From a virus (taxonomy: Duplodnaviria > Caudoviricetes), in IMG/VR virus record IMGVR_UViG_3300035003_000005, positions 1-32,319 of that record: 32,319 bases of DNA; one strand, written 5' to 3'. The position numbers and the translations under genes were made by a program. Below, one piece after another: positions 16,124 through 32,319 of this stretch. The notes below the pieces were generated by a model, which had not been told where the DNA came from, did no database searches, and saw only the letters and a list, made by a program, of their open reading frames with translations. Each line of letters begins with the position of its first letter. The stretch's first letter is position 1.

Positions 16124-16336
16124 CAAGCCGAGGGCAACCTGTGACGCGCCCTTGCTGTTGCCGCCCATCGGCCCGCAGCCCCGCCCAGTGCTGAGGTGCT
16201 GCGTCGATCGCCCGTCGCTGAGCGAGACGAGGCCCAGGCGTGGCAAGAGCTCCACAGGGCAGGGACCGCTCCGCTGTTGGCTGCGCAACCCACAGGTCCT
16301 TGCTCTCCCTCTACCAATCCCTCGTTCCATGTCGTC

Positions 16337-16591
16337 ATGCCTCCCTCCACCCGTGATCTCCTCGCTGCAGTCCTTGGGGAGCGACCGCTGACGACCGAGA
16401 CAAACGTCGTGGCCTCCCCCCACCCGCCTTCGGCAGCGGCAGATTCCTCCCCAGGGCCCTGGCGCGTCACCGCCCAGGTGCACGGCGGCAAGGTGCAGAT
16501 CAGTAACAACCGCGAGAGCCGGGTGGTGCGCAAAGCGGAGGTTGAGGTCTACCTCCGCGGCCACGGCCCTGCCGTCGCGCCCCGCCGCTGA
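16337..16591 (+). CDS. Hypothetical protein (84 aa)
   Basis: ATG 16337; GC3-rich codons; WRVTAQVHGGKVQISNN. Confidence 0.5.
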   Translation: MPPSTRDLLAAVLGERPLTTETNVVASPHPPSAAADSSPGPWRVTAQVHGGKVQISNNRESRVVRKAEVEVYLRGHGPAVAPRR

Positions 16592-16646
16592 AAAGGCTTG
16601 GCGCTGAGCGTCCTGGCAAGAGCTGGTGAGGTTTGCGCCGCCGGGG

Positions 16647-16934
16647 ATGGCCCGCCACCAATCCACCAACACCGGGCCAATCATGGCCCTGGTTGCCGCT
16701 GAGATCGCTGTCCTGCTCGCGTTCGTGGGGGTGTGCGAGCTTCGGGCCTCAGGCCCCGCGATCTGTGAACATCGCTGGAGCCTGGTGCTGCCCAGCGTTG
16801 CTCTGGTGGGACAGTCGGCGGCCACCTACTTCATGGACAGCGGCAGAGGTGGGGGCAGCCACCCCGATCCGCCCCGCAACACGCGAGGCCAGTTCACCCC
16901 CCGCCGCCGCCAGGACGACGAGCTTCCTGGCTGA
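16647..16934 (+). CDS. Small two-TM membrane protein, holin-like
   Basis: Two hydrophobic segments, charged C-terminus; upstream CTGGCAAGAG motif. Confidence 0.55.
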   Translation: MARHQSTNTGPIMALVAAEIAVLLAFVGVCELRASGPAICEHRWSLVLPSVALVGQSAATYFMDSGRGGGSHPDPPRNTRGQFTPRRRQDDELPG

Positions 16935-17278
16935 AGCGGCAGGCCCTTCTCCATGAAGACCCGTTGCCGCCAATGAAGACAGGTGTCGATCACCACGAAC
17001 GTCTTGCCCGCAGCGGTGGGCTGAACGATGGTGACGGCATCGGGATTCGGAGGCTTCATTGATGGAAGACACCCCCCCGGAGCAGACACCAGGAGCGCGC
17101 TGACGATCCGGCCCCTGCTCCAACACTCTCGACGGATCTCTGACGTTCCAGGCGTGTCACGCCGTCGCCGTCCACTGCACCGATCCAGGTGCCCCGGACC
17201 CAACGGAACGTCCCACTAGACACCTGGCCCCAGGTGCCAGCGCCAGCGGCTCCGAACCTTCAACCCAAGAATCCCAAG

Positions 17279-17306
17279 GCCCGGGGCCAACGCTCCGGGC
17301 TTTGTT
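17279..17306 (+). terminator. Possible intrinsic terminator
   Basis: gcccggggc-caac-gctccgggc stem (one G-U) followed by tttgtt. Confidence 0.35.
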
Positions 17307-17410
17307 GTGGTTATTGGGCGTCTGCATCCATCCAATGACTGTTGGAGGAAAGCCGGCGGCGCGAGATGTCTCCGTTGCCCAGCAAACCACACCCAGCTGG
17401 GCTGGGCGAC

Positions 17411-18106
17411 TCAGCTGGGCAGCGCGGTGTCCCCGACCTCCTCCAGCCGGCAGAGGCAGCGGAAGCGCAAGGCGACCAGCTGGTCGTAGAGCGGGTTGAT
17501 CTTGCACATCGGCGGGATGTGGACCAGCTTCCAGCCGAACAGCTTCACGTCGCGCTCAAAAGGGCACTGGGCGGGGATCAGCCGCACCAGGAAGCGGGCG
17601 ACCTCTGGATCGGAAGGCTCCAGCGCATCCATCCAGCGCCGCACAGCATCGAGACGCCCTGGGTGCTGATGGGTGTCACAGCAGACGTCACTGGAGCCAT
17701 CACGGATCATCGGCGTCTTGAGCAGGTCTTCGATCAAGCCCTGGCCCACCTGAAGCACTTCACTCCAGTGCCGCAGCCGTTCGCATTCGATCGCGCTGAG
17801 ATGGCCATCGGCCAGGGCCACCAGCACAGCGGAGCGCAGGAACTCCTCCGCAACGGGCGTGCCGACCCCGAAGCGGTGGACCACGGCCTCGTCGCCGGGA
17901 TGGTGCAGGTCGTCGAGGGTCAGACCAGGAAGATCCCTGGTCAGCTGCTCCGCCAGCAGCCGTTCCTCTGCAGGGGAGAAATCGCCGTCGGCAAGCGCCA
18001 GCTGGTGCAGCGCAGCGAGCCACAGTCGCCGACGCGCCGCCTTGGCGTCGAGGCCGTCGATGGCAACAGGGTGGCCCATGGGATGCGTAAGGCCGGTGAA
18101 GGACAT
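17411..18106 (-). CDS. TerB-like + Mo-dependent nitrogenase C-terminal domain (Mo-nitro_C) protein
   Basis: LALADGDFSPAEE and VALADGHLSAIE TerB-like motifs; IPAQCPFERD...IPPMCKINPLYDQLVALRFR; start 18106 or 18079. Confidence 0.85.
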   Translation of the reverse strand: MSFTGLTHPMGHPVAIDGLDAKAARRRLWLAALHQLALADGDFSPAEERLLAEQLTRDLPGLTLDDLHHPGDEAVVHRFGVGTPVAEEFLRSAVLVALADGHLSAIECERLRHWSEVLQVGQGLIEDLLKTPMIRDGSSDVCCDTHQHPGRLDAVRRWMDALEPSDPEVARFLVRLIPAQCPFERDVKLFGWKLVHIPPMCKINPLYDQLVALRFRCLCRLEEVGDTALPS

Positions 18107-18421
18107 CCGCCGCAAGTCAGGCGGTGAGGAGCGGCACGGCAGGCAGCCACCCGTCCCATTCTGAGCTCGCAAGGACGCTGACCCGCTGCAGGCGCCAGCT
18201 GGAGCAACCACGCGGGTCCTTGGCTGTCTGGGCGTTGTCCCAGCAGCCGGATCAGGTGCCCTCAGGCCTCGACGCAGAACGAGGCCAAGCGGAGCAATGG
18301 GCAAGCCCAGGCGTACCCCCCGGCCGAGCCGATCCGCCTGCCGCCTGGTAACTGCTGTTGAGCCCTGCCCCAGCGACTCCCCGCCCGGCCGCTGCTCGCG
18401 CCAGCCGTCCGCACGGAACCG

Positions 18422-19210
18422 ATGAGCGACCCGAGCACCGATCCGCCCGGCGGGCAGCGCGGACCTGACAACCAACCCGGGCTCCCAGGTGAGCCACCGC
18501 TGGAGCCCCCAGCCGGGGTGGTGGGGCCGCCGCCGGAACTACCGAGCCTGGGGCCCTTGCATCTGAGCCTTTCAGCCGATGGCCTGCTGTTGCTTGGCAT
18601 GGCCGCCTGGCTGCTCTGGCGCGCCTTCCTGCGCGACACCGTCATGGCCCGCATCGGCACCCTGCTTGGCACCCAGCAGGACAGCCGTTACATGGCCGAC
18701 CTCCTGGCCCAGGTGGGGGTGCTCACCGGCTCCAGCAGGGTGGCGCTCGGCAGCTTCTACAGCCCTGGGCTGACCAGCTACGGCTATGCCTTTTCTCGGG
18801 TGACGATCGTCAGCTCCTACGTCTCGTTGGGACGGCTGCCGCTGGCGCTGGAGTCGAAAGACCTGCCGATCGAGAGGATCCGCCAGGACCTGGAGGTCCT
18901 GATCGCCCATGGCGCCGACAGCTGGCACCTTGTGCGGCTCAGCAGCCTGCTGCCGGTGCCCTGCCAGGACTACCTGCAGCGCAACGGCATCACCTTCCTC
19001 TACGGGCGCCTGATCCTGCTGGAAGGCACCCCGATCGGCATCCTCAACATCCATTTCGACACGCCGCTGGCGGCCACAGATGTGCCGGAGGCACTCCCCC
19101 ACGGCGAGCTGCTGGAGGCGATCTACCGGGAGCTGAGCCGGCTGGTGCGGGGCAGGATGCTGCGCCCGTCGATCTGGCGGCGCCTGTTCAGCTTCTGGGC
19201 GGGGCGCTGA
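18422..19210 (+). CDS. Single-TM protein with GAF-like C-terminal domain (holin candidate)
   Basis: Pro-rich N-terminus, TM GLLLLGMAAWLLW, then SSRVALGSF...YLQRNGITFLY...PIGILNIHF. Confidence 0.65.
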   Translation: MSDPSTDPPGGQRGPDNQPGLPGEPPLEPPAGVVGPPPELPSLGPLHLSLSADGLLLLGMAAWLLWRAFLRDTVMARIGTLLGTQQDSRYMADLLAQVGVLTGSSRVALGSFYSPGLTSYGYAFSRVTIVSSYVSLGRLPLALESKDLPIERIRQDLEVLIAHGADSWHLVRLSSLLPVPCQDYLQRNGITFLYGRLILLEGTPIGILNIHFDTPLAATDVPEALPHGELLEAIYRELSRLVRGRMLRPSIWRRLFSFWAGR

Positions 19211-19783
19211 GCGTCAGGGCGCCGGATTGCACCAGCAGCCACAGCCGCCTTGCCTGCTGCTGCCGCCGCTCCAAGTGGGGCACACCGGGGCGGAAGTACC
19301 CCTGGCCCTTGGCGGCGGAGCCGGTCCAGTAGGCCGCTGCCGCCTCCGCATCCATCCCCGCTGGCCGCTGCTCGAACACCCGCGACCAGCCGATCAGCGA
19401 TCCTTCCGGCGGATCGTGCAGGCCGGCGTACTCCTCCGCGAAGTAGCGCTGCTGCCAGCCGCTGCTGTTGGGATCGATGCGCAGTGCGATCGCCTGCTGC
19501 CGGGCCCGCTCGTAGGCCACCCGGCGCGGCCCTGTGTACTGCATCGCACCGCGGCCCCTGCCGCTGCCGGCCTCCGTCACATCCAGCTGCTCGAGATCGG
19601 GCTGGCCGGTCTCCACGATCACGCAGGCCAGGAAGCCGCAGGCCTCCGCGGCACTGAGCGGGGCGATCTTCCAGGCGCTGGCCTTGGTGACCGCAGAGCT
19701 GGTGAGGAACTGGAGCCAGTGCTGCAGGTTGCTGAGGCCGGACTCCTGCTCAGGCCCTGGCCCCGGACCTGGCCCCGCCGCTA
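19188..19783 (-). CDS. Phage tail lysozyme-like domain without its own start codon
   Basis: EACGFLACVIVETG (putative catalytic Glu), GRGAMQYTGPRR, RVFEQRP; no in-frame ATG/GTG/TTG between the upstream stop and the domain. Confidence 0.65.
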
Positions 19784-20506
19784 CTTTTTTTCCTGGAACA
19801 CCCCCACATAGACGGTGCCCTGCTCGTACAGCGGCAGGATCCGCTCGCGCAGCACCACGTTGTGGACCCGCAGGCAGCCAAGGGTGGGCAGCAGCGTCTG
19901 CCGCGGCTCCCAGGCACCGGGCCAGCCGCAGCCGGTGCCGCCGCCATGGAGCATGATCCCGGCCCGGCCGAGCTTCTGCTCCTGGCCCTCCAGCTCGACC
20001 ATGTCGTAGCTGTACCAGCCATAGGCCATCAGGGTGGCGTCCCTCGGCGGGTTGGGGTTCTTCTCCCAGTCCCGATAGACCGTCCCCAGCTTGTAGAGCC
20101 CCGGCGGGGTGTCGGTGCCGGTGTGACGCCACTCGGTGTCGGTGCCCTGGCCCCGGGCCAGGGACGGTTCCCGCCACAGGAACTTGCCGGTGTGGTCGTA
20201 GGCCTCCATGTCCTGGTCACGGTCGTTGACCAGTAGGTAGGAATCGCCCGCTTTCACCGGTGCCGGGATCAACGGCCCGGCCAGGCCGGCCTCCTCGCTG
20301 CCGCGGGGATCGAGCGGCGGGAGTGCAGAGCTCACCGGCTGCGCGGGCTTCTCGCTGAAAGCGACAGCCCAGGGCGCCTCCTCGCGCAGGATCGCCTCTC
20401 CCCCCTTCAGCTGGCTGATGGCCTGGTGCAGCAGCAGCACGCCCCGCGCTTGTTGTTCTTGAGCCCTGAAGTGGAGGAAGCGGTCGAGGAACCGCTGGGG
20501 CGACAT
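19781..20506 (-). CDS. L,D-transpeptidase (YkuD) family protein
   Basis: DTPPGLY, IMLHGG...PTLGCLRVHN (His/Cys); ATG 20506. Confidence 0.85.
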   Translation of the reverse strand: MSPQRFLDRFLHFRAQEQQARGVLLLHQAISQLKGGEAILREEAPWAVAFSEKPAQPVSSALPPLDPRGSEEAGLAGPLIPAPVKAGDSYLLVNDRDQDMEAYDHTGKFLWREPSLARGQGTDTEWRHTGTDTPPGLYKLGTVYRDWEKNPNPPRDATLMAYGWYSYDMVELEGQEQKLGRAGIMLHGGGTGCGWPGAWEPRQTLLPTLGCLRVHNVVLRERILPLYEQGTVYVGVFQEKK

Positions 20507-20604
20507 CGTGGCCACGGCCTGAAAGCAGCTGCCTTCTGTTGCCAGAGCGAAAGAAAGGCCTGGCGGAGAGGACCGCCAGGCCGGGCCATTGAGGCCTGCG
20601 GGAC

Positions 20605-20802
20605 TCAATACGGCACTTCCTCAGGCCGGATCCAGGCCGGGCAGGAGGGCGGATTGGCTAGCTGCCGCTCCAGCAGCAGCGCATCGGCCAGCCCCCCCAA
20701 GCGCGGCAGGGGAGGACAGGTGGTGCAACAGATGAAGCTCAACCGCTCCAACGAGGCGGAGCTGTGGTGGGAGAGGGAGCGGATGCGGGCAGCGGTGGCC
20801 AT
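20605..20802 (-). CDS. Small hypothetical protein (65 aa)
   Basis: ATG lies at the same spacing from hairpin copy D as in the other copies. Confidence 0.45.
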   Translation of the reverse strand: MATAARIRSLSHHSSASLERLSFICCTTCPPLPRLGGLADALLLERQLANPPSCPAWIRPEEVPY

Positions 20803-20833
20803 GGCCGGCGCAGCGAAGGACGCCAGCGGTCAC

Positions 20834-20890
20834 GCGGGATGGGGTCAAGGGCGGCGAAGCCGCTCGCGTCAGCCCTTGAGGCCATCCCGC
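20834..20890 (-). promoter_or_regulatory. Hairpin leader, copy D
   Basis: tcaagggc 20845-20852 / gcccttga 20872-20879; outer gcgggatgg/ccatcccgc. Confidence 0.75.
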
Positions 20891-21018
20891 ACGATGAAGC
20901 GACCTGCGTGAGCCAGTCCCCCAGAGGGGCCAGGGCCTGGAAATCCCGGGAGCCCCCACTCCTGCTGCCAAGACAGCGCTCAGGCGGGGCCACCACGAGG
21001 GCGACTCCGCCCCGGCCA

Positions 21019-21543
21019 TCAGGCCCGGACAGCGGCAACCTGCAGGGCGCGCCGGCGCTGCAGGCTCTGCTGCACGATCTCGGCCTGGCCGGCGTGATCG
21101 CTGGCGCGGAAGTGCTGCAGCTCATCCCAAGGAAGCCCCTGCTCGAAGGCCTGATGGATCGGGCAACAGCGCTGCACCAGCGCCGAGCAGTGCTTCCACA
21201 GGATGCGCTTGGCATGGTGCGCCTCGCTCTCGCTGAGCGCCTCGTGTTGGCCCTCAGCCAGACGGCGGGACACGCCCACCGCTTTTCCGTGGATCACGGT
21301 GCCGCCCAGCAGCGGCCAGTGCAGGCTTTCCAGCTCGCGGGCCTTCGCCCAGGCGCCGCCGTGGGCGACCACGATCGGCCCGACCCGGGAGAAGGTGAGC
21401 GATTCTGGGCGGCAGAAACACAGCCAGCCGAGCAACTCAGAGCTGAGCACGGGCTCGGGTGGAACGTGAACCCCAATAGAGGTGCAGACGTGATCGCTGT
21501 GGGTGAGGGCCTTGCGCTGGATGAGCAGGATCTGGAGTGCCAT
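21019..21543 (-). CDS. Hypothetical protein (174 aa)
   Basis: ATG 21543 (MALQILLIQRK...), preceded by hairpin copy E. Confidence 0.6.
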   Translation of the reverse strand: MALQILLIQRKALTHSDHVCTSIGVHVPPEPVLSSELLGWLCFCRPESLTFSRVGPIVVAHGGAWAKARELESLHWPLLGGTVIHGKAVGVSRRLAEGQHEALSESEAHHAKRILWKHCSALVQRCCPIHQAFEQGLPWDELQHFRASDHAGQAEIVQQSLQRRRALQVAAVRA

Positions 21544-21574
21544 GAAGGGGGATGGCAGGCGGACCCGAGCGGAC

Positions 21575-21641
21575 CTGCGGCGCGGGCAAGGGTCGGCGGA
21601 GCGCAGCGGCGCCGACTTGCGCAGCCCTTGCACCGCCGCAG
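21575..21641 (-). promoter_or_regulatory. Hairpin leader, copy E
   Basis: gcaaggg 21586-21592 / cccttgc 21625-21631; outer ctgcggcg/cgccgcag. Confidence 0.75.
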
Positions 21642-21700
21642 ATCGTGAGGAAGGCCGCCGCCTGCCCCTTTCAAACCGGTTCCCGCAGGCGCCTTTCCCC

Positions 21701-21720
21701 TCCTGGCAATAGGTGGTGAC
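21701..21720 (+). promoter_or_regulatory. Candidate late-promoter motif CTGGCAATAG
   Basis: 17/20 identical to 16611-16630; related copies at 23722, 25834 and 20545 (minus strand). Confidence 0.5.
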
Positions 21721-21750
21721 GTTGCTGGAGCCCCTGCTCCCGGAGTGACC

Positions 21751-22650
21751 ATGGGCCTCACCCTCATCGAGGCGATGAAGCATGAGACGCGGGTCGATCG
21801 CCTCGCTGTCACCAAGACCTTCGCGGAAGGTGAGCTTCTACGCCGGCTGCCGTTCCGCAATCTCTCCGGCGGTGCCCTCAAGTACCCCAAGGAGATCAAG
21901 CTGCCCCGCGTCGGCTTCCGCGGTGTCAACGAGGGCTACCGCCGCAGCTACGGCGCCATCACCAACGAGACCGAGTTCGTCCATCTCTTCGGGGGGGACC
22001 TCGATGTGGACCGCTCGATCGTTGACATGAACGGCGCCGAGGCCAGAGCCAGCCAGACCGAGCAGAAGGTCCGCTCCATGCGCATGACGCTGGAGGCCGC
22101 GATCATCAACGGTGACGCCAGCTTCGATCCACGCGCCTTCAACGGCCTCAGCAAGCGGCTGGTGCCCGATGGGCCCCGCACCATCGACAACGACGGCGGC
22201 ACCGTCAAGCTCACCAGGCTCGAATCGCTGGTGGATTCGGTCAACGCCAATGGCGGTGAGAAGGTGCTGCTCACCAGCAAGGCAGGACGGCGCCAGATCA
22301 GTCACGCCAGCCGTGAGGCCGGCGGTGACCTCTACCAGGTGATCGACGGACGCCACTGGTTCGAGGACACCGAGATCCTCTGCGTGGATGAGGACGCCAA
22401 CGGCCATCCTGTGCTCGGCTTCGGGGAAGCCGGCAGCACCACCAGCTTCTACTGCTGCGCCTTCGGCGACGAGATGGTCACCGGTCTGCAGGGCCCCTTC
22501 GAGGGTCGCTACGGCATCTCCGTGCGCGACTTCGGCGAGGTCCCCGATGCCCCGGTCTTCCGCACCCGGGTGGATTGGTACGTCGGCTTCGCGGTCTGCA
22601 ACGACCGCTCCGTGGGCCGGCTGTTCAACATCGGCCCCGCCGTCAACTGA
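21751..22650 (+). CDS. Major capsid protein (HK97 fold, epsilon15 gp7-like)
   Basis: MGLTLIEA, LLRRLPF, LPRVGFRGVNEGY, FGGDLDVDR, INGD...FNGLSKRL, RTRVDWYVG; GGAG RBS. Confidence 0.85.
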   Translation: MGLTLIEAMKHETRVDRLAVTKTFAEGELLRRLPFRNLSGGALKYPKEIKLPRVGFRGVNEGYRRSYGAITNETEFVHLFGGDLDVDRSIVDMNGAEARASQTEQKVRSMRMTLEAAIINGDASFDPRAFNGLSKRLVPDGPRTIDNDGGTVKLTRLESLVDSVNANGGEKVLLTSKAGRRQISHASREAGGDLYQVIDGRHWFEDTEILCVDEDANGHPVLGFGEAGSTTSFYCCAFGDEMVTGLQGPFEGRYGISVRDFGEVPDAPVFRTRVDWYVGFAVCNDRSVGRLFNIGPAVN

Positions 22651-22712
22651 GCCCGCAACCCCAGACCCCTTTCCACGCCATTGCTGATCCCCCTTTTGCT
22701 GAGGACACGACC

Positions 22713-23138
22713 ATGAGCCGACCCATTGATGCCGCCGCCACCCTGGTGGGCTGGATCAATCACACCGCCACCGATCCGAACGAGCGCACCATTGCCGGCG
22801 GCACCACCGTGAAACTGAGCACGCCGCTCGATGCGGCCGATGTCTTCACCTTCGTGGCCTCCCATCCGGGCCATGCCGCTGCTGTCACCTTCACCCTGGA
22901 GGTGGCCCCCGAGCTGCTCAACGGGACCATGGGCACCTGGGTGCAGGCCGCCGAGGTGGCGATCCCCGCCGGCGGTGGGCGGGTCGAGGCGCCACTCAAC
23001 GGCGGCAACCTCGCCGTGGCACCAGCCGATGCTGACGACGTCGGCGCCTACAGCGTGGTCTTCGCGCGCTGCCTGATGACCAACCCCAGCGACGTGACCG
23101 TCGCTCCTGCCGGCGCCTATGCCGGCCTCACCTTCTGA
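22713..23138 (+). CDS. Putative capsid cement/decoration protein
   Basis: 141 aa, beta-rich, directly after the capsid gene; GAGGA RBS. Confidence 0.6.
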   Translation: MSRPIDAAATLVGWINHTATDPNERTIAGGTTVKLSTPLDAADVFTFVASHPGHAAAVTFTLEVAPELLNGTMGTWVQAAEVAIPAGGGRVEAPLNGGNLAVAPADADDVGAYSVVFARCLMTNPSDVTVAPAGAYAGLTF

Positions 23139-23148
23139 GGGCCGACCC

Positions 23149-23700
23149 ATGGCACCGATCGAGGACGGACTGGCGGCCCCCGCCGGGATGCTGCTGATCT
23201 CCAAGGAAGGCGAACAGGACCGGATCATCTACCCGGTCCACGCCGACGGCTGGCGCCGCCTGGGCTGGACGATTCACCCGCCCCAGCCGGAACTGGAGCT
23301 GGAGGACGACGAGCACGAGGAGGACGGGGAACCAGCCGCTCTGGAAGCAGAGGGCGACGAACTCCTGCCCGCTGGGTTGCTGCTGGAGACCGGCGGCCAG
23401 GACCACCAGGAGCGCCAGGACAAAGGGGCCAGCGAGAGGACTGCTGAACCGTTGGAGCTGGAGCGGCTGACCAAGCCCCAGATTGTCGCCGCCGTGCGTG
23501 AGCGCTTCGGGGTGCTGCTCGATGGCAGCCAGACCCGCGCTGAGCTGCTCGCCGCAGCGGAGGAGCTGCTGGACGCAGAGGTGCACGACGGCCAGATCAA
23601 GACCGAGAGCACCGGCCCGGGCAAGGGCATCGGCGAGGCGGAGGGCGAGGGCAACGGGCAGAGCGAGGGCGAGGAGCTGGTCCCCAGCCTCCTGATCTGA
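23149..23700 (+). CDS. Acidic protein with HeH/Rho-N-like motif
   Basis: LERLTKPQIVAAVRERFGVLLDGSQTRAELL; motif type often seen after phage head genes. Confidence 0.6.
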   Translation: MAPIEDGLAAPAGMLLISKEGEQDRIIYPVHADGWRRLGWTIHPPQPELELEDDEHEEDGEPAALEAEGDELLPAGLLLETGGQDHQERQDKGASERTAEPLELERLTKPQIVAAVRERFGVLLDGSQTRAELLAAAEELLDAEVHDGQIKTESTGPGKGIGEAEGEGNGQSEGEELVPSLLI

Positions 23701-23753
23701 GACCCGCCATGCGTTCTGCCGCTGGCAATGGTCAGTAGCCCGGTGCGTGAGCG

Positions 23754-24533
23754 ATGCCCTACCCGCTGCCCTCCACGCCACCGCAGAACGGCGATCGCCT
23801 CCGCCTGCTGCCACCCCTCGGCTGCCCCGGCCGGGGCGAGTGGGTGGTGCCCCATGAGGTGCCGCGCTGGCTGGCCATCGGCTTCCGCACCGCACCCGTT
23901 CCTGCCCTCGATCTGGAGCTCAGCTGGATGCCATCCCCGCGGCGTTGGGATGAACCGGCCCTCTCTCGCGCCGTGGCGCTGCTGGTGAACCCTCGGGCGC
24001 TGCCGCCGCAGCCGATCGAGATCACCTGGGGGGATGGCAGCAGCGAGACGGTGCCCTGGACGCCCTACGACCAGCGGATACCGGAACCCCGCCACCTCTA
24101 CACCGACATCGAGGATCACAGCGTCACCGTGCAGGTGGGACTCCTGGTCGCCACCCTTGAGGTGGCGCTGCACAGCTGCCCGCTCCCCATCACGTCACCG
24201 CGGGCCGGTGACGATCCGCCCCGCGTTGGTGTGGGCCTGGCCCTGGTGCCTGGTGCCGGCCTGAGCGGCAACGCCTTCGATGGCAGCCGCAACGAGCAGT
24301 GGCAGCTGCGCCTCCATCCGCAGGGCGGCCTCGGGCTGCTGCCCAGCCCCGTCGACGGCCAGCCGGCGCTGGTGGCGATGCACGGCTCCGGCGTGGCCAG
24401 CCGCGGCGTTCGCTGGTACTCGGGTGACGGTCCACCCACCTTGCAGTGGCACGAGGAGGTGCAGCCGCCGCCGGCGCCGGGGGATCTGTATCTGGATCGG
24501 CTCAGCGGCAGCATCTACGAGCTGGAGGTCTGA
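23754..24533 (+). CDS. Putative virion protein with PKD-like domain and fibre motif
   Basis: ITWGDGSSE..HLY PKD signature; C-terminal WYSGDGPP..GDLYLD. Confidence 0.65.
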   Translation: MPYPLPSTPPQNGDRLRLLPPLGCPGRGEWVVPHEVPRWLAIGFRTAPVPALDLELSWMPSPRRWDEPALSRAVALLVNPRALPPQPIEITWGDGSSETVPWTPYDQRIPEPRHLYTDIEDHSVTVQVGLLVATLEVALHSCPLPITSPRAGDDPPRVGVGLALVPGAGLSGNAFDGSRNEQWQLRLHPQGGLGLLPSPVDGQPALVAMHGSGVASRGVRWYSGDGPPTLQWHEEVQPPPAPGDLYLDRLSGSIYELEV

Positions 24534-24733
24534 TGAGCTGGACCCCCACCGGTGATTCGCTGCGCGGCCCCCCGGGCCCGTCGCCGAGCTGGGGCGCCAT
24601 CGGCGGCAGCCTCGGCGACCAGATCGACCTGCAGCAGGCCCTGGCCACCAAGCTCAACGCCTCGCGCCTCACCGTTGGCCCCACGCCGCCACCCGACCCA
24701 GCTCCTGGTGACCTCTGGATCGACACCACCTGA
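24533..24733 (+). CDS. Small fibre-module protein (66 aa)
   Basis: TGATG coupling; WGAIGGSLGDQIDLQQAL and PAPGDLWIDT fibre motifs. Confidence 0.65.
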   Translation: MSWTPTGDSLRGPPGPSPSWGAIGGSLGDQIDLQQALATKLNASRLTVGPTPPPDPAPGDLWIDTT

Positions 24734-24735
24734 CC

Positions 24736-25548
24736 ATGGCCATCACCTCCCGCGACCAGTTGATCGCCGCCCTGGCGAACTCCCGCCATTCCTTGTTCGA
24801 CAAGGCCTCGATCAGCAACGCCGTCGTCGGCCGCTTCTATTCCCTCTGGCGGGCGACGGGGCAGCCAGGCCAGGGCGCCATCCCCACCGCGCCGGCGGCC
24901 TGCACCAACGCCCTGTTGGGCTCGTTGAACTACCTGCCCCAGCCGCAGCCTTCCAGCAACTACATCGGCTGGGTGGATGTGGCCACCAGCCTCGCGACCG
25001 GCAGCCTGGAGATTCACGACCGCCTCTGCCACCAGGGCGGACTGGTGGGGAACCTCAACACCCTCCAGAGCACCAACCTGCCGCTCTCCCTGGCCGGCGT
25101 TGCGGCAGAGCGGATCGGCCTTGGGGATTTCAGCCAGCTGCAGTGGTGGCTGGAGTGGTACGCCGACACCGGCTCCACGGCCGTCACCGCCAACGTGAGC
25201 GTGGTCTGCGAGGACGACAGCACCCAGGTGGTGGCGGTGCCGCTGGTCGCCACCAGCCGCGCCTCGGGGCTCTACCAGATCCTGCCGCCGCAGGGCAGAA
25301 CCGGCATCAAGGCGGTCAACAGTGTCCAGCTCAGTGCCACCAGCGGCACCGCCGGCAACTTCGGTGTCACCTGCAGCCGCTACCGCGCCGGGTTCTTCAC
25401 GGTGGTGGCGAACAAGGCGGAGGTGTTCGACTGGGCCGCCCTTGGCCTGCCGGATCTCCACAGCGACGCCTGCCTCTGCCTCATCCAGCTCTGCACCGCC
25501 ACCACCACGGGCATCTCCAAAGGTGTAGCCCGCTTCATCGCCGGTTGA
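24736..25548 (+). CDS. Putative virion structural protein (270 aa)
   Basis: MAITSRDQLIAA start, Ala/Thr/Gly/Ser-rich, in operon. Confidence 0.7.
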   Translation: MAITSRDQLIAALANSRHSLFDKASISNAVVGRFYSLWRATGQPGQGAIPTAPAACTNALLGSLNYLPQPQPSSNYIGWVDVATSLATGSLEIHDRLCHQGGLVGNLNTLQSTNLPLSLAGVAAERIGLGDFSQLQWWLEWYADTGSTAVTANVSVVCEDDSTQVVAVPLVATSRASGLYQILPPQGRTGIKAVNSVQLSATSGTAGNFGVTCSRYRAGFFTVVANKAEVFDWAALGLPDLHSDACLCLIQLCTATTTGISKGVARFIAG

Positions 25549-25551
25549 GCC

Positions 25552-25800
25552 ATGGCCCGCCATGAGCGCGACGCCCGCCCTCCCTTCCCGGGTGGCTCCG
25601 ATCGCTGGGACCGGGGCCCGGCCGGTGACCTCATCACGGCTGACTTCTTCTCGCCTCAGCCGCCACCGCCAGCCGGGGGCGAGCTGCGCTTCTGGAGCGG
25701 CACCGACTGGCGTAGCCGGCCGGTGTTGGTGTGGACCGGCAGCACCTGGACGGCGAAACCCGCCCGCCGCTGGAGCGGCACCGCCTGGCTGCTCACCTGA
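25552..25800 (+). CDS. Small protein with WxGxxW repeats
   Basis: WSGTDW, WTGSTW, WSGTAW. Confidence 0.6.
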   Translation: MARHERDARPPFPGGSDRWDRGPAGDLITADFFSPQPPPPAGGELRFWSGTDWRSRPVLVWTGSTWTAKPARRWSGTAWLLT

Positions 25801-25870
25801 GCGGTAAGTGCGGCCTCCGCTGGCCCTGCGGGGCTGGCAATAGAGGGCAGGCACGTCCTGCTTTCGCCCC

Positions 25871-26905
25871 ATGACCTGGCAGAACACCGGCTCCCTCCGC
25901 GGCCCCCAGGGCGTGCCGGGGCCTCCCGGCCAGGCCGGCGGCCCCGGGCCAGCAGGCCCGCCAGGCCCCGCCGGGATGGGCATCGACTTCAAGGGCAGCG
26001 TTCCAACCTTTGCCGCCCTGCCCACGAACGGCCTGCAGGAAGGCCATGCCTATGTCGTCGCCGATCAAAACGACCGGCTCTACGTCTGGGACGCGGACAC
26101 CAGCAGCTGGGTGGATGGGGGCTCGATCCAAGGGCCGCCGGGACCTGCTGGAGCACCGGGCAGCGCCGGCCCCCGCGGCAGCGGCTGGTTCGTTGGCAGC
26201 GGCCCGCCTGGCTCCATCCCCACCGCCCTGGTGGGCGATCTCTATCTCGATCTGGTCAGCGGTGAGGTGCACCAGCTGCAGCCGCCCCCGACCGGCTTCC
26301 CGGTCGCCAACCTGCCGGCGATCGGCGCCGCCTTCCAGGGCGGCTACTACGGCGGGCTGATCTCGCAGGCCGCCAACGGCATCGCCAGCCATGCGCTGAT
26401 CATTGCCCCCAAGGCCACAGGCGAAAGCTCCAGGGCCTGCAAGAGCGCCAACACCGCCACCGCCGGGACGGGCAGCAGCTTCGATGGCTTCGCCAACAGC
26501 GAGGCGGCCAAGGACGCCGCCCACCCGGCCAACCAATGGGCCCGGGCGCTCTCCATCGGCGGCTACGACGACTGGTACATCCCGGCCCTCTACGAGCTGG
26601 AGATCCTCTACCGGCGCTTCAAGCCGGACAACAGCGAGGGCAGCACGCCAGGCTTCGGGGCGAACGCCTACGCCATTCCCGCCACCACCGCCAACTACTC
26701 CGGCGTGATTCCAGCCCAGACCGCCGTGGCGCTGTTTACGACCGGCGGCGCCCAGGCGTTCTTTTCCGGCGGGATTGGCACCTCCACCCAGGACTCGGCC
26801 ACCACCCACCAGGTGCAGGACTGGTACTACGGCAACTGGGATCCGCTGAGCAAGACCACGGCTCAGACGGTGCGGGCGATTCGAAAGATCGCCGTGGTGC
26901 CCTGA
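25871..26905 (+). CDS. Collagen-like fibre with C-terminal DUF1566/C-type-lectin-like domain
   Basis: Gly-X-Y repeats; IGAAFQGGY, GGYDDWYIPALYEL, terminal VRAIR. Confidence 0.8.
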   Translation: MTWQNTGSLRGPQGVPGPPGQAGGPGPAGPPGPAGMGIDFKGSVPTFAALPTNGLQEGHAYVVADQNDRLYVWDADTSSWVDGGSIQGPPGPAGAPGSAGPRGSGWFVGSGPPGSIPTALVGDLYLDLVSGEVHQLQPPPTGFPVANLPAIGAAFQGGYYGGLISQAANGIASHALIIAPKATGESSRACKSANTATAGTGSSFDGFANSEAAKDAAHPANQWARALSIGGYDDWYIPALYELEILYRRFKPDNSEGSTPGFGANAYAIPATTANYSGVIPAQTAVALFTTGGAQAFFSGGIGTSTQDSATTHQVQDWYYGNWDPLSKTTAQTVRAIRKIAVVP

Positions 26906-26908
26906 GCC

Positions 26909-27319
26909 ATGCCCTGGGTCGCCAGACAGGAGGGACCGCGCCGGCTCAGCCAGAGCCTGCTGCTCCCGATCGCCGCCGGCCCCCAGGTGGCACCACTGAG
27001 CTTCGATCGGCTGGGCAGTGCCGGGCTGCTGCTGCTCGTCAGCTGCGACATCCCGGCCTGGCTCAGCCTCTACGTCTCGGACGCCGCCGCCCTCGCCGAC
27101 GCCAATCGGCCCCAGAGCGCCGATCCGGATCCGGCGGCTGGCGTGGTGCTCGATGCCGTCTTTACAGAAGACAGCGCGGTGCTGCGCCTGCCGCCGGGGG
27201 TGAGCTGGGCCAACCAGGACGATCCCCCCGCCGCCCTGCTGCATGGCCGGCTGCGCACCGACCAGGGCCAACCCATCGAGGCGATGCTGTCGATCAGCAG
27301 CCTGCTGCTGGCGCTTTGA
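26909..27319 (+). CDS. Cyanophage-like fibre-associated domain protein
   Basis: AWLSLY...ADANRP..DPDPAAGVVLD pattern recalled from cyanophage virion proteins. Confidence 0.6.
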   Translation: MPWVARQEGPRRLSQSLLLPIAAGPQVAPLSFDRLGSAGLLLLVSCDIPAWLSLYVSDAAALADANRPQSADPDPAAGVVLDAVFTEDSAVLRLPPGVSWANQDDPPAALLHGRLRTDQGQPIEAMLSISSLLLAL

Positions 27320-28182
27320 TGGCGGCGATCCTCACCGATCTCTCCCGCCGCGGCGATCAGGGCTTCCCGCTGCCGGATCTCTTCACCGACGTGGAGGCCC
27401 TTTTGGCCAGCTGGCTGGTGGCGGCCAACGCCCAGAACCCCACCCAGCTGCTCGAGGTGCTCACCGGCCCGGCCGCCGATGCCGAGCATCTGGGCTGGAC
27501 GATCCGCGCCACCCTCGCCGCCACCAGCGGCGGTGCCCCTGTCCAGCTGATGAGCCAGTGGGTCGCAACCCTGGCCGGCACCACCGCCACCACAGCGGTG
27601 GGCCTGGCCGCCGGCCACAACCCCAACGGCGGCCTCGGCGCCCACGGCCTGCTCAGCGGCGGCCAGTTCCACGCCCCGGCATCAAGCCTCAATCCCGCGG
27701 AGCCTTACCCGGCCCTGGCCTGGGTCGTGCGCAGCCTGGCTCCGGGTCAGGAATACTTCGGCTTCTGCCTCTCGCTGCACACCTTCTCCACCCGCCAGGC
27801 GGTGGTGCTGCTGATCGCCAAGGACGTCACCTCAGGCCTCTGGCACCTGCACAACACCACCATGGGCGGCCTCCAGTGCATGGTCGCCTGGAACCTCGCC
27901 GCCGCCAGGGAGATCTTCGCGACGGCCCTGTGGAGCGAGTTCTTTAACGGGCCCCCGTTCGCCTTGCGCCACCCTTCGGCCTGGATGCTGGCAACCCCTT
28001 CGATCGTCCATGTCACCCCCCTGCCGCCGCTGCGCCGCTGGGATCCGGTGGTGTTGCCGGCGGACTTCGGCACCTACAACCGCACCTTCGCCACCGGCGG
28101 CTACCTCAAAGCCGCCAACGGCAGCGAGTGGCTGGTCTTTGGCCCCAGCCGCCTGGCGGTTCGTCTCATCGACGCCCCATGA
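27319..28182 (+). CDS. Putative virion protein (287 aa)
   Basis: TGATG coupling at 27317-27321; similar to the next gene. Confidence 0.7.
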   Translation: MAAILTDLSRRGDQGFPLPDLFTDVEALLASWLVAANAQNPTQLLEVLTGPAADAEHLGWTIRATLAATSGGAPVQLMSQWVATLAGTTATTAVGLAAGHNPNGGLGAHGLLSGGQFHAPASSLNPAEPYPALAWVVRSLAPGQEYFGFCLSLHTFSTRQAVVLLIAKDVTSGLWHLHNTTMGGLQCMVAWNLAAAREIFATALWSEFFNGPPFALRHPSAWMLATPSIVHVTPLPPLRRWDPVVLPADFGTYNRTFATGGYLKAANGSEWLVFGPSRLAVRLIDAP

Positions 28183-29405
28183 CCCTCACGGCCTGTGCCC
28201 GCACCTGGGGCCCGGACACCTACAACTGGGCCAGCAGCGCCGCCACCGATGTCGGCATGCGGCTGCATGAGGCCTTCTCCGCCTTCGCCGCCGCGGCAAA
28301 CGCCAACCCGGCCAATACCGATCTGCAGCTCAGCGTGCTGCGCAATCACGCCAGCGCCACCGGCAGCACCAGCTACGGCTTCGTGTGGCGCCTCGGGCAC
28401 CCCACCTCCCCCCTGGTGCTGAGCTTCCACAACGTCTCCCTGGCCCAGGGCTTCAGCTCCAGCACCGCCAGCGCCCTGCTGCGCCTGGGCCTGGCCAGCA
28501 ACTGGATCGATGACACCAGCAACGGCGGCTACGGCAACTTTTCTTCCACCCTGCTGAGCGCCAACCGGGGCCTCTCCCACTACGGGCCCAGCGGGACGCC
28601 TGCGGTGGCGGGGCTGGAGGGGACCCTGATCGTCGTCTTCGATGCCACCCCAGGGGCGGAGTTCTTCCTGGCCACCCTGCTGCGCCCCGGCGATGACAAC
28701 TACAGCCTCAACCTCTCGATCCTGCTGTTCCGCAGCCCGGCGGTCAGCGGCTGGAACCTCTGGTTCCACCGCGCCCGCGCCTACATCGGCATGTTCAGCT
28801 CCAACGATCGCTGGAGTTGGCGCGGCCAGTCCCCGGAGGTCGTCAGCTTCGTTTCAGGCGCCTCCGGCACCCAGCAGATCAACGCCCCCATCGCCTGGCA
28901 GGTCATCCCGCTGGCCACCGGTGCGGTGCAGTTCAACAGCGTCCAACCCCGTCTTCTCCTGCCACCCCTGCTCTGGAATGGCGACAACCAGCACACCGAC
29001 CCCCGCCGCCTGGCTCGTTTCAGTGACCCCGCCGGTGGCGGCACCTACTACCAGCTCGGCGCCGCTGGTGGCGCCGTCGATGACCTCTGGCTCCGGCTCC
29101 CCTCCAGCCCTCCGCCGTCTGTGTTGAGTGGCTGGGCGGCCATCGGTTCACTCAGCTGGCGCAGCCTCAGCGATCGCTTCTCCGTCATGGCCCTGCCGCC
29201 GCTCTCCCCCTCCCTGATCGGACCGGCGAGCGTGCCGGATCTGATCACGGACTGGAGCCCCAACGCCGCCGGCCTGGCCGGCGTGCAGCAGCACCCGCTC
29301 TATGCCCAGCAGCTGGCTGCCGCTGGTGGCATGGGCGGGGGAACGGGCGGCGGCGGCGGATCGGGCCGGCCCGCCACCGGCGTGCTCTGGCCAAGGCGGC
29401 AGTAA
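28179..29405 (+). CDS. Putative virion protein (408 aa)
   Basis: ATGA coupling; Gly linker and terminal RPATGVLWPR. Confidence 0.7.
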   Translation: MTLTACARTWGPDTYNWASSAATDVGMRLHEAFSAFAAAANANPANTDLQLSVLRNHASATGSTSYGFVWRLGHPTSPLVLSFHNVSLAQGFSSSTASALLRLGLASNWIDDTSNGGYGNFSSTLLSANRGLSHYGPSGTPAVAGLEGTLIVVFDATPGAEFFLATLLRPGDDNYSLNLSILLFRSPAVSGWNLWFHRARAYIGMFSSNDRWSWRGQSPEVVSFVSGASGTQQINAPIAWQVIPLATGAVQFNSVQPRLLLPPLLWNGDNQHTDPRRLARFSDPAGGGTYYQLGAAGGAVDDLWLRLPSSPPPSVLSGWAAIGSLSWRSLSDRFSVMALPPLSPSLIGPASVPDLITDWSPNAAGLAGVQQHPLYAQQLAAAGGMGGGTGGGGGSGRPATGVLWPRRQ

Positions 29406-29523
29406 CGGCGCGCCGCCTACGACGCGTGCCAGCGCAGGGCTGCGGACATCGCAACAGCAAACACGCGCTTCGTGGTGTCGACGGGACGGGGGCCCAACGG
29501 GCGCCTGCGGTGCTCCGCCCATC

Positions 29524-29934
29524 TCAGCGCCGCCGCGACGGCGACCTGGCCAGGTGATGCACCGCATGGGCCACCACCCCAAACAGTCCCGAGCGATCGA
29601 ACGACTCCAGATCCAGCACGATCACCGCTTCCCCGGCGCGTTGCGGCTCCAGCAGCCACTGCTCCCCCTCACACCGCAGCGGCCGCAGCAGAAACACCCC
29701 CCGGTGGGCCACGATCACCACATCGCCGCTGCGGGGCTCGACACTGCGGTCGATCACGAGCAGGTCGCCGTCGTGGATGCCGTGGCTGCGCAGCCCATGG
29801 CCGCTGACCCGCATGTAGAAGCTGCAGGTTGGATGGGGCACCAGGGCGCCGTGGAGATCCAAACCCTCCTCATCGGCGCTGACGCTGCAAGGAATCGGTT
29901 GGCCCAGGGGCAGCTCGGCCAGCATCGTCCCCAT
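29524..29934 (-). CDS. UmuD/LexA-like S24 family protein, apparently catalytically dead
   Basis: LDL..LVPHP..SFYMRVSG..GIHDGDLLVIDRS..GDVVIV..FGVV; GHGL replaces GxSM and LLRPL replaces TxKRL. Confidence 0.8.
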   Translation of the reverse strand: MGTMLAELPLGQPIPCSVSADEEGLDLHGALVPHPTCSFYMRVSGHGLRSHGIHDGDLLVIDRSVEPRSGDVVIVAHRGVFLLRPLRCEGEQWLLEPQRAGEAVIVLDLESFDRSGLFGVVAHAVHHLARSPSRRR

Positions 29935-29941
29935 CCGCAGC

Positions 29942-29955
29942 AGTACAGATGTCCT
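29942..29955 (-). promoter_or_regulatory. Cyanobacterial-type LexA box
   Basis: AGTAC-AGAT-GTCCT (one mismatch from AGTAC-N4-GTACT), just upstream of the umuD-like ATG. Confidence 0.6.
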
Positions 29956-30002
29956 ACTACGGATGGAGCCTCTCCGGCCTGCTCTCCGCAGCAGCGTGGC
30001 CC

Positions 30003-30350
30003 TCAGCCGCCGGGGCCGCCGCCCCGCACCGGCAGGCGCACCAGACGCCCTCGCACCTGGCCCCATTCGCTGCGCCGCCGCGGCAGCGGCGCACCCCGCA
30101 GCAGCGCCTCGATCCGCTCCACCAGGCAGCGCGGCACCAAACCCCCGCTGACCTGCTCCCGGGGGGTGAGGAAGCTGCCGCTGTGCAGCGGGCTCCAGTG
30201 GGCCTGCTGCCAATGCAGCAGCCGGCCGGCCTTGCCCCGCTTCTCGAACAGCACCAGCGCACGGGCTCCAGGGCGGAAGCTGGGCAGCAGGGTGACGCGC
30301 CAGCGGATCCCGCTGCGCTGAACATCAAGAAGGATCTGAACACCGGCCAT
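30003..30350 (-). CDS. Hypothetical protein, paralog of 718-1149
   Basis: GIRWRV...LVLFEKRGK...VPRCLVERIEALL. Confidence 0.7.
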   Translation of the reverse strand: MAGVQILLDVQRSGIRWRVTLLPSFRPGARALVLFEKRGKAGRLLHWQQAHWSPLHSGSFLTPREQVSGGLVPRCLVERIEALLRGAPLPRRRSEWGQVRGRLVRLPVRGGGPGG

Positions 30351-30380
30351 GGCCGCAGCGGTGAAGGACCCGACCTCCCG

Positions 30381-30481
30381 GCGGGCCCGCGCAAGGGCTG
30401 GCCGGCGCCCTTGGCACCAGCTGCTGTGGGCAGAAAGCAGCCGGCGGAGGCCAGCTCGCGAAGCCCTTGCGCGAGGCCCGC
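30381..30481 (-). promoter_or_regulatory. Hairpin leader, copy F (expanded interior)
   Basis: 12-bp IR cgcgcaagggct 30388-30399 / agcccttgcgcg 30462-30473; outer gcgggcc/ggcccgc. Confidence 0.75.
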
Positions 30482-30592
30482 AGGATGGGGAGGGCCGCCA
30501 CCGCCTCTTCTGGCTCGCGAACCGATCCCGTCGCTAAAGCGACTGTCTTACCCTACTGACCCCGACTAGCCTTTCGCAGCGATAGCAGCCTC

Positions 30593-30838
30593 ATGGCTAT
30601 GGATCTGCTCTGCACTGGCACTGACAAGCAGACCGTCGACACCCTCCTCCTGCCGGAGCGCAGCCTCGTGAGGCGGTGGTCGCTCCTGGCCATCCAGCAG
30701 GCCAACCCGTCGACCTTCATGCGCCACCAGTACGCCCGCCACGCCGCGGCTCGCATGCTGGCTGCCTGCAGCGACTGGTTGGAGAGCAACGGCCACCGCC
30801 ACCTCGCCGCCGCCATGCGCGAGCAGCTCAAGGCCTGA
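30593..30838 (+). CDS. Hypothetical protein (81 aa)
   Basis: GC3-rich ORF with helical pattern (ACSDWLESNGH..LAAAMREQL). Confidence 0.55.
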   Translation: MAMDLLCTGTDKQTVDTLLLPERSLVRRWSLLAIQQANPSTFMRHQYARHAAARMLAACSDWLESNGHRHLAAAMREQLKA

Positions 30839-31832
30839 GCGACTCAGCCGGTGGCCTCAGGCCAGGATCCGCAGCTCCGCCTCCCGATGCCGCTGCAGGG
30901 ATTGGATCTCCGGCCGGCTCCTCGGGACAGGGCGCCTCCGGGCACAACAGATCCACCGCTTGGCGCGCCTCGCTGATCACCTGCAGCAGCACCTTCGGGG
31001 ACTCGCGCAACACAGAGATCCAGCTCTGCAGATAGGCGGCGTGATGGGCCAGCTCGCAACCGATCTGCAGCCGCTGGCCGATCAGCACACTGCCCAGCTC
31101 GGCCACCAGCTCCTCGCGGGCATAGCCGCGGGAGCCAAACGCACCAGATAGATCCCGCTTCAGGCGGGATTCGTGGCACGTGGAGTGAATGCACTCGTGG
31201 GCCCAGGTGGCATAGAGCGCAGCCGGCGAGTGGAAGGCCTCGCGCTCGGGCAGCTGGATGCGATCGGCGCCGAGGGCATAGAAGGCCCGCTCACCGCCCC
31301 AGCCAACCGGCACCTCCCAGGCCTGCAGCACCTCCTCGGCCTGCTCGATCCGCTCCAGCGGTGCCCTGGGCTGCACCTGCGGCAGCCGGGCTTCGATCAG
31401 AGCGGCGAGCGCCTCGCCTTCCAGATCGCAGGCATTGAACACCGGCACCGGCCGGTAGCGTGCCCAGCTGCGCAGCACCGGCTCACCCTCGCTGCCCTCC
31501 TTTTCGCTGGACTGCAGCTGGGGCCGCAGGATGCGAACCGACTTCGATCCCTTGCGCGGGAAGAGGCCCAGCTTCTTCGCCTCGGCGAAGCCGCACCAGA
31601 ACGGCAGCTCAGCGCCCCGCATGGCCATCCCCAGCTCCAGGAGGATGGGATTGCCGCCCCGGTAGGCCCGGCCGCTGAGCAAATTGCTGTGGACGCCGCC
31701 ACCGCGGCTATCCCATGGCCGGCGCCAGGGTGTGCTGCCGGCCTCGAGCAGCTCGATCAGATCGCGCACCATCGCCTCCTCGGGCGAGGGACCGGAGAAC
31801 CTGTGGCGGCGCGTGGTGGTGGATGCGGCCAT
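30828..31832 (-). CDS. ardC: ArdC-family antirestriction / ssDNA-binding protein
   Basis: PWRRPW, SGRAYRGGN, VFN, AFY..DRIQLP, HECIH zincin motif, YAREELVAELGS, AYLQSW; ATG 31832. Confidence 0.9.
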   Translation of the reverse strand: MAASTTTRRHRFSGPSPEEAMVRDLIELLEAGSTPWRRPWDSRGGGVHSNLLSGRAYRGGNPILLELGMAMRGAELPFWCGFAEAKKLGLFPRKGSKSVRILRPQLQSSEKEGSEGEPVLRSWARYRPVPVFNACDLEGEALAALIEARLPQVQPRAPLERIEQAEEVLQAWEVPVGWGGERAFYALGADRIQLPEREAFHSPAALYATWAHECIHSTCHESRLKRDLSGAFGSRGYAREELVAELGSVLIGQRLQIGCELAHHAAYLQSWISVLRESPKVLLQVISEARQAVDLLCPEAPCPEEPAGDPIPAAASGGGAADPGLRPPAESLRP

Positions 31833-31862
31833 CGGGAAGGGCGCAAAGGACGCCGACGTGCC

Positions 31863-31936
31863 TGCGCGGGTGAGCGCAAGGGCGGGAGGCCCGCCAGGGC
31901 CGAACCGCTCGCGCAGCCCTTGCGCCATCCCGCGCA
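31863..31936 (-). promoter_or_regulatory. Hairpin leader, copy G
   Basis: gcgcaagggc 31874-31883 / gcccttgcgc 31916-31925; outer tgcgcggg/cccgcgca. Confidence 0.75.
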
Positions 31937-31986
31937 CACTGAGGCACCCTGCGCGCCTGCCTTTCAACAAAAGGGAGCCCTACAGC

Positions 31987-32319
31987 TCATGCTGTGACAC
32001 GCCTTTGCGCTTCCAGCCAGAGCAGCGCAGAGCGGATCACCTCGGCGTGGCAGGCCAACGGCGCGCACCAGCACAGCAGCTCCAGCGGGCCCACTTGGGC
32101 CTGGGCCAGCAACTGCTCCAGCTCGCGCAGTTGCAGCGAGCCGGGCACCTGCAGCTGGGCCCAGAGCCAATGCCGGTAGCGGGCAATCACCTCAGCGCGG
32201 CTTCCATCGCGGCCGAGCTGGAAGGGATTGCCCAGCGGGCTGGGCCGGCCCACATAGACCTGACCGGGCAGGGGATCAGAGAGCCTGCTTCGCCGGGCTT
32301 TGCCGATCGTGATCTCCAT
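31987..32319 (-). CDS. DUF4326 family protein
   Basis: VYVGRPSPLGNPF, REVIARY-like segment, LLCWCAPLACHAEVI. Confidence 0.85.
   Translation of the reverse strand: MEITIGKARRSRLSDPLPGQVYVGRPSPLGNPFQLGRDGSRAEVIARYRHWLWAQLQVPGSLQLRELEQLLAQAQVGPLELLCWCAPLACHAEVIRSALLWLEAQRRVTA

Follow-up and report, generated by a model that had tools for sequence, protein, structure and literature searches.

What does a run of capsid and fibre genes belong to when it stands apart from the packaging and tail genes that usually accompany it? This question is raised by a 32,319-nucleotide stretch of DNA (hereafter the window), recorded in IMG/VR as the caudoviricete virus IMGVR_UViG_3300035003_000005, in which 11 genes led by a major capsid gene (21751-29405) had been described as an orphan operon with no portal, terminase, scaffold or tail core inside a conjugative-type backbone. 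Annotation of the carrier genome and of related loci places this block in an integrative element that keeps head, packaging and predicted neck genes and has no recognisable tail. With moderate confidence, we favour the view that it is a self-replicating, capsid-forming, head-only element that borrows the tails of siphoviruses.

The window (1..32319) corresponds to G000:C7:35451-67769 in the carrier genome, that of a picocyanobacterium (3.25 Mb, 68% GC, 99.99% complete), whose proteins have named relatives in Cyanobium and Synechococcus, and represents the right-hand part of an integrative element of approximately 79 kb. To the right, the element runs 370 bp beyond the window to the 3′ end of a tRNA-Pro(tgg) gene (C7:68138-68213); to the left, approximately 46 kb more of it extends from the integrase through the scaffold gene. 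Like those phage-inducible chromosomal islands that form capsids (cf-PICIs), it has an integrase and attachment (att) repeats, the latter being a 45-bp tRNA-Pro 3′ end found at C7:68138-68182 and C5:260430-260474, with an integrase adjoining the C5 copy; a third copy lies at C5:248921, and both C5 copies are followed by an integrase. The size estimate depends on an inferred join of the two contigs at a 99-bp tandem repeat, in which C5 ends and C7 begins. A sister element in G262 shows the same layout contiguously, occupying 102.7 kb of a single contig from the integrase (97% identical) to tRNA-Pro.

Terminase, portal, two neck-type genes, scaffold, a sigma factor and a replication initiator are all present 23-42 kb upstream of the capsid gene on the same contig, separated from it by defence cargo, and all late genes of the element lie on the capsid gene's strand. 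They include terL (C7:22573-24186; phrog_38, E 1.5e-68), the portal gene (C7:28607-30190; phrog_145, E 1.6e-23; DUF4055) and the scaffold gene (C7:33856-34737; phrog_206, E 2.2e-10), which ends 714 bp before the window. The terS-like gene, which has no family match, was called from its position before terL and its conservation in all eight complete elements (five att-bounded, two circular and one provirus called complete by CheckV). In two sub-lineages, the TerL match is split by an in-frame insertion near residue 390-395 (e.g., G143:C1:3107549-3109222). An O-like initiator starts at C7:14853, and other upstream genes encode Xis, a PD-(D/E)XK nuclease, RusA, Erf, an exonuclease and the sigma-70 factor. 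Since terminase, portal and scaffold thus belong to the same element, the original prediction of an orphan operon that remodels a helper's head has to be abandoned. The conjugative-type backbone was not borne out either: neither VirB4 (PF03135) nor a coupling protein (PF10412) was detected in the genome, which is 99.99% complete (controls were positive in 1 and 7 of 14, respectively), and no relaxase family matched among the C7 element open reading frames (ORFs) scanned. Genes for ArdC, a DUF4326 protein and UmuD are present in the window.

Directly after the portal gene stand an adaptor-like gene (166 aa) and a stopper-like gene with three LysM repeats (C7:30680-31795; L002:13680-14795), whose homologues in tailed relatives are the first two genes of the neck. 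In hhalign comparisons, the former matched S-CRES3 gp75 at 75% and the latter S-CRES3 gp77 at 95.6%; the stopper-like protein also aligns end to end with P-SS2 gp062, a protein reported from P-SS2 virions (PMC2784084). The nearest Pfam-bearing Atlas cluster of the adaptor-like protein is a phage adaptor (0.89, a lead only), and the fold match, which covered the stopper-like protein, was weak. The stopper-like domain, combined here with three LysM repeats, occurs with HTH_17 and LysM in another lineage and alone in a third.

The capsid block itself is as it had been described: all 11 genes are on the + strand, open and intact, with ATG starts and a third-codon-position GC content (GC3) of 0.84-0.92, and seven of the ten junctions measure at most 10 nt, three of them overlapping. 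Gene 1 (21751..22650, +) encodes a P-SS2-type major capsid protein of 299 aa (phrog_212, E 3e-53; Pfam GP7), whose 41.8% identity to that of cyanophage P-SS2 was the best among the 160 phage records matched. Gene 2 (22713..23138, +; 141 aa) is a core gene that always comes next after the capsid gene (8/8 complete elements). It had no match in the comparison with solved structures, and its position, size and conservation suggest that it likely encodes a cement or decoration protein; of the predicted capsid-cement-fibre composition, capsid and fibre are matched by families, and cement is suggested by these three features. Gene 3 (23149..23700, +) encodes an acidic protein of 183 aa that shares a small helical domain with S-CRES3 gp103, and was found by tblastn in six of the eight complete elements and also seen in G304. 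Genes 4-7 (23754..25800, +; 259, 66, 270 and 82 aa), present in 1-4 of the eight, encode fibre-like accessory structural proteins; gene 5 had a tail-protein match in a profile scan, and a C-terminal motif is common to genes 4 and 8. Gene 8 (25871..26905, +) encodes a collagen-repeat fibre (tail-fibre PHROGs, best E 4.7e-17), and its C-terminus, which matches Lcl_C below the family cut-off (E 0.004), is predicted to be a receptor-binding tip. Genes 9-11 (26909..29405, +; 136, 287 and 408 aa), found in three of the eight, encode accessory structural proteins homologous to the C-terminal domain of S-CRES3 gp94/P-SS2 gp087 and to S-CRES3 gp72 (profile E 3e-23, 1e-7 and 6e-14). No tube, tape-measure, sheath or protease family matched any of the 11 genes in family scans. 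The block is flanked by a divergent gene (21019..21543, -) with no family match and homologues in six sources, of which the hairpin said to lead it did not stand out, and by a convergent gene for a UmuD-like S24 peptidase (29524..29925, -), as predicted.

The predicted lack of a tail core extends to the whole element and its relatives. When 14 query proteins drawn from P-SS2, S-CRES3 and a tailed prophage of G194 were searched by tblastn, Neck1, terminator-like, tube, tape-measure and tip proteins were each found in none of the eight complete relatives. PHROG scans of 123, 78 and 55 element proteins returned no tube, tape-measure or sheath family, the one 'baseplate hub' match being LysM-driven. 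PF17212 (tail tubular/nozzle, podovirus-type) matched nothing, controls included. Packaging genes do lie nearby, as in an ordinary rearranged prophage, but the tail genes that such a prophage should also have are missing. A complete P-SS2-like siphoviral prophage was likewise rejected, as Neck1, terminator, major tail protein and tape measure occur in 0/8 complete relatives. In the carrier genome, the only Neck1-like and tape-measure matches fall in a separate 11.5-kb element on contig C5. A P-SS2-type tube gene was detected in only three of 301 family genomes: G194 and G086, in which the capsid matches are distant (28% and 38%), and G280, in which it stands beside a tape-measure gene on a contig other than that of the element capsids. 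G194 (C53, C30) and G086 (C61, C72, C83) contain pieces of P-SS2-like prophages of the tailed kind, in which neck, terminator-like, tube and tape-measure genes occur; these are candidate helper phages.

The element is by no means an isolated case. Its capsid protein matches 72 of the 301 family genomes, fragments included, with up to seven matches per genome (6/16 genomes within its own genus), and TerL matches 66. All eight complete elements (44.6-102.7 kb) have the nine core head, packaging and neck genes, and gene order is kept as terS-terL-sigma-[cargo]-portal-166 aa-LysM protein-[cargo]-scaffold-[cargo, lysis]-capsid-gene 2-gene 3-variable fibre-like genes, as judged in 23/23 IMG/VR loci and in fetched genome regions, some of which stop short of all genes. 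In a FastTree phylogeny rooted on G194, all 42 element capsids group in a single clade (support 1.0) that has four sub-lineages and excludes P-SS2, S-CRES3, G086 and G194. The clean boundary after the stopper gene is alike in the four sub-lineages, which are approximately 60% identical, while element length ranges from 45 to 103 kb despite closely related capsid proteins. Integration sites include tRNA-Pro, -Gly, -Arg and -Ser. In G301 and in G304, the element forms a circle in which one tRNA 3′ core adjoins the integrase. The G304 circle has the head and neck genes and no fibre gene after the capsid block, and therefore could not adsorb unaided; no other single observation argues as strongly that the core depends on outside help for adsorption.

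The core genes are under purifying selection, which is strong for the capsid gene. The ratio of nonsynonymous to synonymous substitution rates (dN/dS; median over pairs with dS 0.05-0.5) was 0.034 for capsid, 0.10 for portal and scaffold, 0.11 for TerL, 0.14 for gene 2, 0.15 for the stopper-LysM gene and 0.17 for the adaptor-like and YkuD genes; against G262, it was 0.11-0.35 for genes 4-11, including genes 4-7, and 0.79 for gene 3. In addition, a conserved box, YGGCAAYRG, precedes 33/34 capsid, 22/27 scaffold, 16/21 portal and 9/16 YkuD genes, compared to 0/15 terL, 0/11 terS and 53/2516 host genes in a same-size window, and lies 34-39 nt upstream of 30 of the 34 related capsid genes. Here it is found before the portal and scaffold genes, 38 nt before the capsid start (TGGCAATAG, 21704..21712, +), ahead of the YkuD/lysin block (TGGCAACAG, 20536..20544, -; approximately 21 nt upstream of YkuD homologues), before gene 8 (TGGCAATAG, 25835..25843, +) and, as a variant, before gene 4 (TGGCAATGG, 23723..23731, +). 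It is predicted to be a promoter element for the element's sigma factor. Each late block thus likely has its own promoter, so that cargo can enter between blocks, and this would explain the bounded, orphan-like look of the capsid block.

The closest phages, P-SS2 and S-CRES3, share with the element the order terS-terL-sigma-portal (PMC2784084), the portal family, the first two neck genes, the scaffold, the capsid (37-42%) and some accessory structural genes. However, between their neck and scaffold genes stand those for Neck1, a terminator-like protein, the major tail protein, tape measure and tip (in S-CRES3, Neck1, major tail protein and tape measure are among the genes next after gp77), where the element has LysM repeats and cargo. 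The element descends from P-SS2-like siphoviruses and has kept only their first two neck genes. In Synechococcus RS9917, a tRNA-bounded island of approximately 42 kb was described with a P-SS2-like terminase, integrase, sigma factor, ORF25 (portal) and lysozyme (PMC2784084); compared by this description, RS9917 islands were read as degraded, whereas a similar layout is conserved, selected and circular here.

Functionally, the nearest known systems are cf-PICIs such as EcCIEDL933 and KpCIDSM30104, described as integrated, tail-less elements with capsid, portal, both terminases, adaptor and connector, whose packaging genes are flanked by variable immune cargo (bioRxiv 2022.09.08.507074, 2025.02.11.637232) and in which adaptor and connector are reported to determine the tail used (bioRxiv 2025.02.11.637232). 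The element likewise has capsid, portal and small and large terminase genes and lacks a complete tail module, a fragment in G235 being the exception. However, it is 3-7 times larger (45-103 kb versus a reported 10-18 kb; bioRxiv 2025.02.11.637232), has a scaffold in place of the maturation protease (no head maturation protease or HNH endonuclease family was matched among the element ORFs scanned), and possesses its own sigma factor, fibre genes and packaging genes in separately boxed blocks, as well as lysozyme and YkuD genes (19188-20515) where cf-PICIs have no lytic genes. It would therefore appear to work like a cf-PICI without being a member of that group by size, protease/HNH or lysis genes, and its P-SS2-type capsid implies an independent origin. 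PICI-like tycheposons (bioRxiv 2020.12.28.424599) and the integrative mobile elements packaged in virions (VEIMEs; PMC9618062) are similarly described as tRNA-targeting, picocyanobacterial and phage-dependent. Nevertheless, the former are reported with a capsid gene or small terminase only and no extra cargo, an identity ruled out here by the full head pathway and heavy cargo, and the latter as lacking a capsid gene and being smaller than 17 kb. The literature searched, which included 10.1101/325100, PMC6337551, PMC10696648, PMC10690885 and PMC12822802 and covered few subscription papers, gave no account of a picocyanobacterial element that is conserved, forms capsids and lacks a tail; such islands appear there as relic or incomplete prophages.

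The other genes of the element comprise cargo and a lysis block. An anti-phage system is predicted at 1626..11189 (+), between the scaffold and capsid genes, in the form of a cassette of DUF499 ATPase, DUF3780, DUF1156 methyltransferase and PLD-SNF2 helicase (PADLOC PDLC02192, 02191, 02189, 02193). The same cassette follows the capsid gene in the relatives L046, L058 and L063, and its 90-98% identity (methylase, 71-78%) between distantly related elements in a different slot suggests recent cargo exchange. Further cargo includes a Druantia-like system, a RelA/SpoT protein and two VapBC pairs; the DruE/DruF genes (G000:C7:643-11117 and the end of C5) are preceded by a coiled-coil ORF with the 99-bp tandem repeat that breaks the assembly. 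A host-like gene for a protein with TerB and Mo-nitrogenase C-terminal domains (17411-18079) is carried as cargo and contains an exact late box (18061-18069, +), and a 72-aa gene without known family (15813-16028, -), found in 27 sources, is among the element's most conserved. With respect to lysis, there are genes for a lysozyme-type lysin (19188..19784, -; Phage_lysozyme2, E 6e-7 on the same-frame ORF 19188-20177) and a YkuD-family L,D-transpeptidase-like protein (19781..20515, -; Pfam YkuD, E 1e-4; 17 sources), the latter predicted to be part of the lysis block. A candidate holin-like protein of 83 aa (16683..16934, +) has an N-terminal hydrophobic segment (hydropathy 2.28 over 19 residues), homologues in five sources and no family match. 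Endolysins occur in relatives, and none was recognised in G304. The window ends with genes for the anti-restriction protein ArdC (30828..31772, -) and a DUF4326 protein (31987..32319, -), the last before the tRNA-Pro junction. In tandem at the same tRNA-Pro site is the 11.5-kb element of contig C5 (G000:C5:248902-260474; L065/L066), which has no capsid gene and encodes an integrase, Xis, a primase, a tape-measure protein of 1043 aa and a Neck1-like protein. It is likely a tail-manipulating satellite, comparable to EPIPs as described in PMC12822802; G262 has a similar small element with the Neck1-like gene kept and the tape-measure gene reduced to a remnant.

If the element works as we favour, the integrase and Xis would excise it and the O-like initiator would replicate it, after which its sigma factor would read the YGGCAAYRG box and turn on the portal, scaffold, capsid, fibre and lysis blocks together despite the cargo between them. 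TerS and TerL would then fill scaffold-built heads, to be closed by adaptor and stopper, and the lysin and YkuD protein, or a co-infecting phage, would release tail-less heads. A helper (a P-SS2-like siphovirus) could supply the tail that the stopper ring accepts, either within the cell or once it has lysed; the stopper's LysM repeats and the lineage-specific fibres may aid cell attachment, and the host would retain the element for its defence cargo. Since the layout is kept intact in many relatives, the element likely spreads itself and its anti-phage genes via the tails of other phages. The original suggestion of dispersed modules and fibre-decorated tail-less particles comes close to these findings, with the dependence reversed: it is probably tails rather than heads that are borrowed.

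Several observations weigh against tail borrowing. A helper prophage was not found in the carrier genome. G235 has genes from an extracellular contractile injection system (Pvc16, sheath and tube) before its capsid gene (G235:C1 ~629660-633594; L102:10660-14594; capsid strand, one unknown gene between Pvc16 and sheath), cut off by an IS91 element within the pre-capsid cargo slot; it was the sole positive among 24 genomes searched for sheath. Most of genes 4-11 have no family, and other lineages encode beta-propeller and Mtd-type proteins behind the capsid gene, so a short tail that escaped recognition may be present. Fibre tips of the Mtd type (the Bordetella BPP-1 tropism determinant) were seen in relatives at L062:6956-7921 and L053:12701-13735. 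In addition, some copies are broken (terL and portal are split in G077, and fragments occur elsewhere), and some genomes, such as G010, hold the element only in part near the capsid gene. A self-sufficient temperate virus without a conventional tail, relying on its own fibres and LysM stopper or on a short tail from post-capsid genes, would account for the replication, sigma and lysis genes, for the fusion of LysM to a stopper-like protein in several lineages and for the variable fibre, Mtd and beta-propeller genes. We nevertheless consider it unlikely: the neck genes are of the long-tailed-phage type, no large ejection-type protein is conserved, and beyond genes 2-3 no post-capsid gene is common to all lineages, the circular G304 having none.

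That the locus is a decayed P-SS2-like prophage, kept for its cargo after loss of the tail genes, is the published view of the RS9917 islands as relic prophages (PMC2784084), and the broken G077 copies and the partial G010 element agree with it. Decay under relaxed selection is, however, at odds with dN/dS values of 0.03-0.17 in the core genes, the same clean post-stopper boundary in four sub-lineages, the circles and the intact late boxes, which largely refute it and make it very improbable. It is also rather improbable that the element is mainly a defence island whose head and neck proteins sequester or poison the tails of siphoviruses that infect the cell, transfer being secondary. Cargo slots full of defence systems, multiple copies per genome and the competition for tails that tail-less neck rings would presumably exert speak for this, yet interference alone needs no terminase, portal, replication or lysis genes, all of which are under purifying selection, and one cf-PICI that was studied is reported to cost its helper nothing (bioRxiv 2022.09.08.507074). 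Dispersed late blocks under one regulator, the wide spread in the family and the 45-103 kb size range might instead point to an element resembling gene transfer agents or lateral transduction, with heads mostly holding host DNA; the integrase, att repeats, varied tRNA sites, patchy presence and circular forms indicate a mobile selfish element rather than a domesticated locus and leave this rather improbable too.

Among picocyanobacteria, which are major primary producers, intact prophages are deemed rare and phage-like islands are usually called relics. A broader proposal, on which we are evenly divided, is that widespread phage-sized tail pirates exist in these organisms, with autonomous replication, late transcription, packaging and lysis, whose tail-less heads with up to ~100 kb of defence cargo are completed by siphovirus tails, which arose from P-SS2-like phages independently of cf-PICIs, and which would account for the Synechococcus and Cyanobium 'relic prophages'. 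Cultured strains allow a direct test of the idea, thanks to the late box that is conserved and to the sharp break behind the stopper gene. If the islands are working head-only elements, approximately one-fifth of the sampled family genomes would contain an active means of moving anti-phage defence by the tens of kilobases, and tail piracy would have a second evolutionary origin, in an element of phage size that has lysis and sigma genes of its own.

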